Assembly: GCA_028711965.1 (NCBI GenBank)
Contig: JAQTRD010000001.1
Span: 1 to 25,384, forward strand
Origin: Candidatus Colwellbacteria bacterium
GTDB lineage: Bacteria; Patescibacteriota; Minisyncoccia; UBA6257; Colwellbacteraceae
Reading direction: 5' to 3'
DNA: 25,384 nt
Shown: one piece after another, positions 205-303 of the stretch
Numbering within the stretch: the stretch's first letter is position 1
Layout: each line of letters begins with the position of its first letter
Program-made: the position numbers and the translations under genes
The notes under the pieces: model-generated
What the model was told of the DNA's origin: nothing
The model's input: only the letters and a program-made list of their open reading frames with translations
Databases searched by the model: none

Positions 205-303
205 GTGAAACTGGTAAGTATCATCAAAGGAGAGGATGCTAAAAACTGCGCTCCTTGCGATTGTTACGACTGCGTTGCAGGCGACGGCGGGGACTGCCAG
301 TAG
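205..303 (+). CDS. 32-aa Cys/Asp-rich peptide, putative radical-SAM RiPP (ranthipeptide) precursor
   Basis: AAGGAGGG at 191-198, 6-nt spacer, GTG start, TAG 301-303. Translates to MKLVSIIKGEDAKNCAPCDCYDCVAGDGGDCQ with 5 Cys and three CX3D motifs. Too short for the ORF track. Confidence 0.75.
   Translation: MKLVSIIKGEDAKNCAPCDCYDCVAGDGGDCQ

Follow-up and report, generated by a model that had tools for sequence, protein, structure and literature searches.

Maturation of peptides by radical SAM/SPASM enzymes under the guidance of a leader is a known kind of system, and among the described examples that lie closest to the locus analysed here is PapA/PapB, the freyrasin (ranthipeptide) system represented by the NF047865 model, which combines a radical SAM/SPASM enzyme and a RiPP recognition element (RRE) with a Cys- and Asp-rich peptide made up of a leader and a core. 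Enzymes of the PapB type carry their RRE at the N-terminus. The maturases of the SCIFF/CteB and QhpD types are likewise SPASM enzymes and, in substrates rich in Cys, attach its sulfur to a non-alpha carbon of a Thr, Asp or Glu residue. PapB forms thioethers between Cys-S and Asp-C-beta, links Cys to Asp or Glu in nested arrangements as well, and accepts CXnD spacings with n = 0-6 in vitro (PMC9413430). The RREs of such systems are PqqD-like wHTH domains, including those of TbiB1, PbtF, LynD, MccB and TigE, and several of them have been solved with a bound leader.

Secondary metabolism is usually said to be almost absent from the CPR/Patescibacteria. In keeping with this view, one study found no biosynthetic gene clusters in the Patescibacteria genomes that it covered (PMC11613949). 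The first-pass annotation of the DNA studied here had regarded a RiPP pathway as unexpected in a CPR cell. Here we describe a locus at the left end of a contig of Candidatus Colwellbacteria (C65), the whole of which, 25,384 bp, is referred to as the window; the genome amounts to 539 kb in 94 contigs and is 89% complete. Very probably, positions 205-303 encode the precursor of a peptide-maturation cassette that comprises three genes and is typical of Patescibacteria.

Results

A short Cys/Asp-rich reading frame with its own ribosome binding site

The frame at 205-303 on the forward strand was read directly from the DNA. It starts with GTG at 205, comprises 32 codons for 32 amino acids and ends with TAG at 301-303, and it is preceded at 190-198 on the same strand by the Shine-Dalgarno site AAAGGAGGG, which ends 6 nt before the GTG; start, stop, strong ribosome binding site and all 32 translated residues agree with the first-pass annotation. 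The predicted leader, residues 1-14 (205-246), is devoid of Cys and has a hydrophobic motif, LVSII, near its N-terminus at residues 3-7. The core, residues 15-32 plus the stop codon (247-303), was assigned by anchored alignment and HMM match, and its 18 residues hold five Cys (C15, C18, C20, C23 and C31) and four Asp (D19, D22, D27 and D30), and include the family motif CDCYDC. As noted previously, the leader lacks Cys, and in the core the CX3D spacing occurs three times, with an arrangement CxxCDxxD.

The authenticity of so short a frame was assessed with a profile made from the 14 closest precursors of related loci, from which the window sequence was excluded, and the whole genome served as the target. 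The window frame ranked first among 15,565 stop-to-stop frames (E 1.2e-4), the next-best frame of the same genome having an E value of 0.08. The motif CDC[YFHW]DC was found only in the frame at 205-303 when all frames of the genome were scanned. Its position is also that of its relatives: 19 nt separate the GTG at 205 from the stop codon of the upstream frame (3-185), the corresponding gap in related loci being mostly about -30 to +110 nt, and the Shine-Dalgarno arrangement of the relatives (scores of 5-9) is as in the window. Profile test, motif uniqueness and conserved gene order disfavour a chance ORF, and judged by these sequence criteria the 32 codons constitute a genuine gene that encodes a small Cys/Asp-rich peptide. 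The window peptide matches no curated model in Pfam or NCBIfam, nor was a match to a curated precursor model obtained with relatives' peptides, four of which were compared with Pfam and one with NCBIfam.

The upstream frame is probably the 3' end of a radical SAM/SPASM maturase gene

The maturase had been expected to lie to the left of the window. A probable radical SAM/SPASM gene does indeed enter from the left edge, but its last 60 amino acids fall inside the window, where the final 60 codons and a TAG stop codon occupy positions 3-185 of the forward strand before the gene is cut by the contig end. This frame aligns colinearly and without gaps (alignment A2) to residues ~376-436 of family members, and the 60-aa fragment finds its best matches in P0050 and P0062 of the family, to which it is 36-38% identical (small set, E 4e-11). 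A HMMER search of the fragment against 1.8 billion representatives returned the fragment itself and three weak unrelated matches, a yield that reflects a query too short for a database of this size. When relatives were searched in six frames with the same 60 residues, a genome of the same family (G008) proved to encode a 436-aa radical SAM/SPASM protein with a similar tail, and its gene is followed directly by a 54-aa ORF (51 aa from the best-supported start) with a Cys/Asp-rich end.

Homologs of this 436-aa protein (n=349) bear labels that go no further than 'radical SAM protein' or generic automatic ones. A full-length relative, P0032, reached the cut-off of no curated radical SAM equivalog in NCBIfam; it scored 65.2 bits against NF047865, the PapB model, for which the cut-off is 340. 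The best NCBIfam matches of the relative's enzyme include the cofactor maturases PqqE, MftC and AhbD, all far below their cut-offs, and the best match to a quinohemoprotein maturase (E 7e-12) is likewise far below its own. The colinear alignment indicates that the gene directly upstream of the peptide is a member of a large radical SAM/SPASM family, as judged from its 60 surviving C-terminal codons.

An overlap with the left end of the window was found in no contig of the bin, and the N-terminal part of the enzyme, with the radical SAM and SPASM parts, is encoded on none of them. Since frame 3-185 matches the C-termini of the family colinearly and without a gap, the maturase gene is taken to be the one cut by the contig edge. 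The sole SPASM enzyme otherwise present in the genome is on contig C68, where the gene is also cut at a contig end. Joining C68 to the left end of the window was rejected, as the two do not overlap, full-length homologs of the C68 enzyme end in another tail (...NPFCP...RLY/RIY), unlike frame 3-185, and they always have a ~140-aa Cys-rich precursor of their own upstream.

Chimerism of the contig end had been raised as a concern. Logan contigs from three metagenomes of different studies are identical to the window over 83-365 (X1, landfill), 189-554 (X2, groundwater) and 94-262 (X3, a second landfill study), and they contain the ORF at 205-303 whole, except that in X3 only its first 58 nt are covered. 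Overall, Logan contigs of four runs tile positions 83-1229, including a 473-1229 piece, and none extends to the left of about position 48. The tiling of the cassette by these contigs gave no sign of a chimeric end, and the depth of the region, ~3x, accounts for the broken assembly.

Two side observations concern this end of the contig. In the landfill run X1, a 757-nt contig over 473-1229, covering most of the gene that lies convergent to the peptide gene, has 27 differences from the window, and a 210-nt contig over 473-682 is identical to it, so that two strains with the cassette coexist in that sample. The GC content of positions 1-1000, which hold the cassette, is 0.383, as against 0.41-0.47 for most of the contig. 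The low GC of this first kilobase is consistent with an accessory and possibly acquired cassette.

The C-terminal domain of the maturase family is predicted to have an RRE fold

The C-terminal domain of the family was modelled with AF2 as residues 352-435 of P0062 from alignment A2, which includes the window fragment (pLDDT 92.5). The model consists of three to four strands followed by three helices, of which strands 2-3 and every helix are represented in frame 3-185. In Foldseek, the domain's best matches in the PDB are nearly all RREs, namely those of TigE, TbiB1 (with leader), PbtF, LynD, MccB and a lasso B1 protein, and the comparison with RRE structures gave TMq values of 0.60-0.71 at a probability of ~1. 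No sequence match was obtained for the domain in Pfam, PqqD (PF05402) included, or for its profile among PDB chain sequences. Its likeness to known RREs is therefore one of predicted fold, without a match in sequence, and the domain differs from them in being fused C-terminally to a SPASM enzyme. On the strength of the model, the C-terminal domain of the enzyme family has the fold of a RiPP recognition element. The proposal that the precursor belongs with an RRE-bearing radical SAM/SPASM enzyme is borne out to this extent, the window fragment matching the family and the RRE fold being a modelled one.

A convergent gene encodes a putative leader peptidase

On the reverse strand, positions 328-1200 encode a 290-aa protein with an HExxH motif (HEISH, 748-762), which is a conserved partner of the peptide. 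A hairpin of 11 pairs at 318-342, detected in a scan for terminator-like elements, lies between the convergent genes and is likely to be a bidirectional terminator. Homologs of the HExxH protein were found in 22/80 related loci (defined below), and in the 14 closest loci the convergent neighbours share 31-42% identity with it. The HEISH motif, a Glu ~27 residues downstream (E178) and the string LPFSP are invariant in 15 aligned sequences.

The protein belongs to no Pfam family, and its exact sequence is not on record in public assemblies. An AF2 model of high confidence (pLDDT 94) had no significant match in the PDB by Foldseek, the best being to the M1 family (E 1.4, probability 0.12), and its near neighbours in the ESM Atlas are only unnamed clusters, with M1, M61 and Peptidase_MA_2 at TM 0.42-0.49. 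The MA-clan (gluzincin) metallopeptidases are defined by HExxH plus a downstream Glu ligand on a zincin fold; HEISH and E178 make the protein a candidate for this clan, to which its structural likeness is weak and falls short of a significant fold match. From its motif and position, the HExxH protein is a putative leader peptidase.

Across loci L027-L091, at least four sequence clusters can be distinguished among the HExxH neighbours of the enzyme, with members in 31, 17, 14 and 6 loci. The neighbours range from 207 to 340 aa in length, and the motif stands at different positions; this diversity indicates either an old partnership or one put together on more than one occasion.

A tRNA-Gln (CTG) at 1202-1273 abuts the start of the HExxH gene. 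In 18 relatives' loci no tRNA adjoins the cassette, the sole one being ~2.7 kb away in L029, and for this reason we reject integration beside a tRNA and regard the tRNA-Gln as incidental. Its huge depth in metagenomes comes from the tRNAs of other organisms.

The cassette recurs across the Patescibacteria

A search of species-representative genomes gave 241 confirmed stretches, and the best 79 loci were fetched and, together with that of G008, make up a set of 80. Record titles carry Patescibacteria/CPR names for 51 of the best 79 loci, so the expectation that a CPR cell would lack such a pathway does not hold for this cassette. A Cys-rich small ORF with its own Shine-Dalgarno site directly follows the enzyme stop codon in 57/80 loci. 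An adjacent HExxH protein, assigned to one of four sequence clusters, is present in 62/80, and the two features occur together in 50/80. The 14 closest loci have the layout of the window, enzyme, peptide and convergent HExxH gene; the P0062 locus is arranged in the same way, down to a convergent homolog of the window HExxH protein.

A full-length enzyme of the family is encoded by 4/52 other genomes of the window genome's own family, and this patchy spread marks the cassette as an accessory trait. A genome of the same genus (G001; L093:418-3155) has a 453-aa enzyme that falls in a different subgroup of the family and lacks a Cys-rich ORF after its gene; the next two proteins there are one of 280 aa and, beyond it, one of 191 aa with an HELCH motif. 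This copy is for that reason no guide to the missing part of the window's enzyme.

We found no transporter within the cassette, nor an exporter or immunity gene beside it in the window or among the recurrent neighbour clusters. Neither Pfam nor NCBIfam has a model that represents the peptide, the HExxH protein or the docking domain, and literature searches for ranthipeptides or RiPPs made by radical SAM enzymes in Patescibacteria, CPR or Saccharibacteria yielded no description of the cassette. The enzyme family, its C-terminal RRE, the Cys-Asp grammar of the cores and the HExxH partner are undescribed and widespread in CPR, and comparison of sequences and gene order indicates that the locus around 205-303 is a member of this unnamed patescibacterial cassette, represented by a truncated copy with a divergent peptide.

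Adjacent Cys-Asp pairs dominate the core pattern

Near the N-terminus, 33/57 family precursors have a leader motif of the form [FILVMY]-x-[S/T/..]-hydrophobic-hydrophobic, of which FETIL, FESLL, FVSLV and IVSLL are examples, and it is present in nearly all precursors with a C[YFHW]DC core. That unit occurs in 19/57 precursors, the longer CDC[YFHW]DC in 12/57 and CDCYDC itself in 9/57. At 32 aa, the window peptide is the shortest seen, the minimum among its relatives being 36, and it diverges after CDCYDC, its continuation being VAGDGGDCQ in place of the D(Y/F)NCEECD of close relatives.

It had been proposed that the peptide carries three PapB-type CX3D links, and conservation of the spacing in homologs was examined in an alignment of 19 relatives anchored on C[YFHW]DC. 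The pair C18-D22 (anchored positions -2,+2) recurs in 12/19 relatives, and C15-D19 (-5,-1) and C23-D27 (+3,+7) in 2/19 each, all three being present in the window. Two further pairs are common among the relatives: the (0,+4) pair, found in 10/19, is Cys-Val in the window, and the (+7,+11) pair, Cys...Asp in 12/19, is represented in the window by D27..C31 (283-297) with the order reversed, a single case. Only one of the three proposed pairs is therefore conserved, and the signal of the family lies elsewhere. In 56 family cores, Asp directly after Cys (+1) is the dominant feature, at 43% against 20% in shuffled sequences, and Asp at +4 is weakly enriched, at 27% against 20%; Cys-Cys neighbours are avoided. 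The z-scores of this offset test overstate significance because the sequences are related, and it is the contrast between offsets that stands. With the 65 bits of the enzyme relative set against a PapB cut-off of 340, the claim of three PapB-type links is not sustained.

Discussion

The cassette shares with PapA/PapB a radical SAM/SPASM enzyme, an RRE and a Cys- and Asp-rich peptide with leader and core, and departs from it in several respects. The RRE is C-terminal and the precursor gene lies downstream of the enzyme gene; the conserved core consists of adjacent Cys-Asp and C[YFHW]DC in place of CX3D; an HExxH partner without a Pfam family is present; and the enzyme relative scores far below the PapB cut-off. 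Compared with SCIFF/CteB and QhpD, the peptide matches no curated model, nor does the enzyme among its top 25 families, and the leader motif and gene order differ.

A model of how the product may be made can be drawn by analogy with these systems. The leader strand LVSII would dock on the C-terminal RRE of the enzyme, whose radical SAM activity would then cross-link core Cys residues to nearby residues, and the HExxH protein would remove the leader. The likeliest product would contain a thioether from Cys sulfur to Asp carbon, as in PapB and QhpD, with the register set by Cys-Asp neighbours and not by CX3D. That PapB joins Cys to Asp or Glu, also in nested fashion and at spacings of 0-6 in vitro, makes a Cys-Asp thioether the best guess, and by this analogy it is the most plausible chemistry for the cassette. 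More tentatively, and with less than even expectation on our part, the cassette may make a peptide class with an undescribed crosslink pattern, for instance one centred on adjacent Cys-Asp pairs and the C-aromatic-D-C unit, or with a metal-dependent structure, for which a SPASM enzyme with a C-terminal RRE and trimming by a new zincin-like family would be used and which CPR might employ in dealings with hosts or competitors.

Of the other readings considered, the one that survives best is that the product is an intracellular metal-binding or cofactor-type molecule, such as a metallothionein-like peptide, an Fe-S or redox carrier or a precursor in the style of PQQ or mycofactocin, and not a secreted cross-linked peptide, the radical SAM enzyme performing some other modification. 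CxC and CxxC motifs with acidic neighbours do resemble metal-binding peptides, the PqqE, MftC and AhbD models are among the best matches of the enzyme despite their distance from the cut-offs, and such a product would fit a cassette flanked by neither an exporter nor an immunity gene in the window or among the recurrent neighbour clusters. Nevertheless, the combination of leader, RRE and protease-like partner follows the usual logic of leader-guided maturation with later removal of the leader. Moreover, core length and pattern are hypervariable between relatives, as is commoner among natural products than among cofactors, and the presence of the enzyme in so few genomes of the same family speaks against a core metabolic cofactor. 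We consider this reading improbable.

Somewhat more doubtful still is a strict ranthipeptide of the PapA/PapB kind, in which an enzyme of the PapB family would form three CX3D beta-thioethers, C15-D19, C18-D22 and C23-D27. The three spacings are there in the window peptide, links of this type, nested ones included, are formed by PapB (PMC9413430), and Asp at +4 is slightly enriched in the family. This enrichment can, however, stem from the periodicity of CDxCD; of the three pairs C18-D22 alone is conserved, and the relatives have CX3D pairs of their own, at (0,+4) and (+7,+11), which are missing in the window. The score of P0032 against NF047865 and the C-terminal position of the RRE also separate the enzyme from the PapB family. 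That the frame is a chance ORF, that the contig end is chimeric, or that the peptide's enzyme is encoded by the bin's second radical SAM gene we regard as very improbable indeed: the frame has only 32 codons at a contig edge with coverage of ~3x, the first 1 kb has a GC of 0.38 against about 0.44 elsewhere and C68 does end within a radical SAM/SPASM gene, but the profile test, the uniqueness of the motif and the conserved gene order tell against chance, independent contigs tile 83-1229 without breaks, and the tail and upstream precursor of the C68 enzyme's homologs set that gene apart.

If the window locus is, as we favour, part of a leader-guided maturation cassette, then a recurrent combination of enzyme, peptide and protease without a curated family would be among the few dedicated specialised peptide pathways in CPR cells, and would offer new radical SAM chemistry as well. 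To this set the window adds a short, divergent member whose sequence is identical in landfill and groundwater samples.

Outside the window, the bin contains a second, unrelated RiPP-like pair on C68 (C68:3805-5551 in G000; loci L001/L005). Its first gene encodes a 139-aa protein (P0002) with a long leader and a ~75-aa Cys-rich tail, and its second a radical SAM/SPASM enzyme (P0001, cut at the contig end) with ~150 residues ahead of the radical SAM cluster motif. Homologs, in Pontiellaceae and others, always have a ~141-146-aa gene upstream. The GC content of C68 is 35.6%, against about 44% for the bin, and the contig carries other ORFs, from which we suggest that C68 is possibly a mobile element or has been mis-binned.
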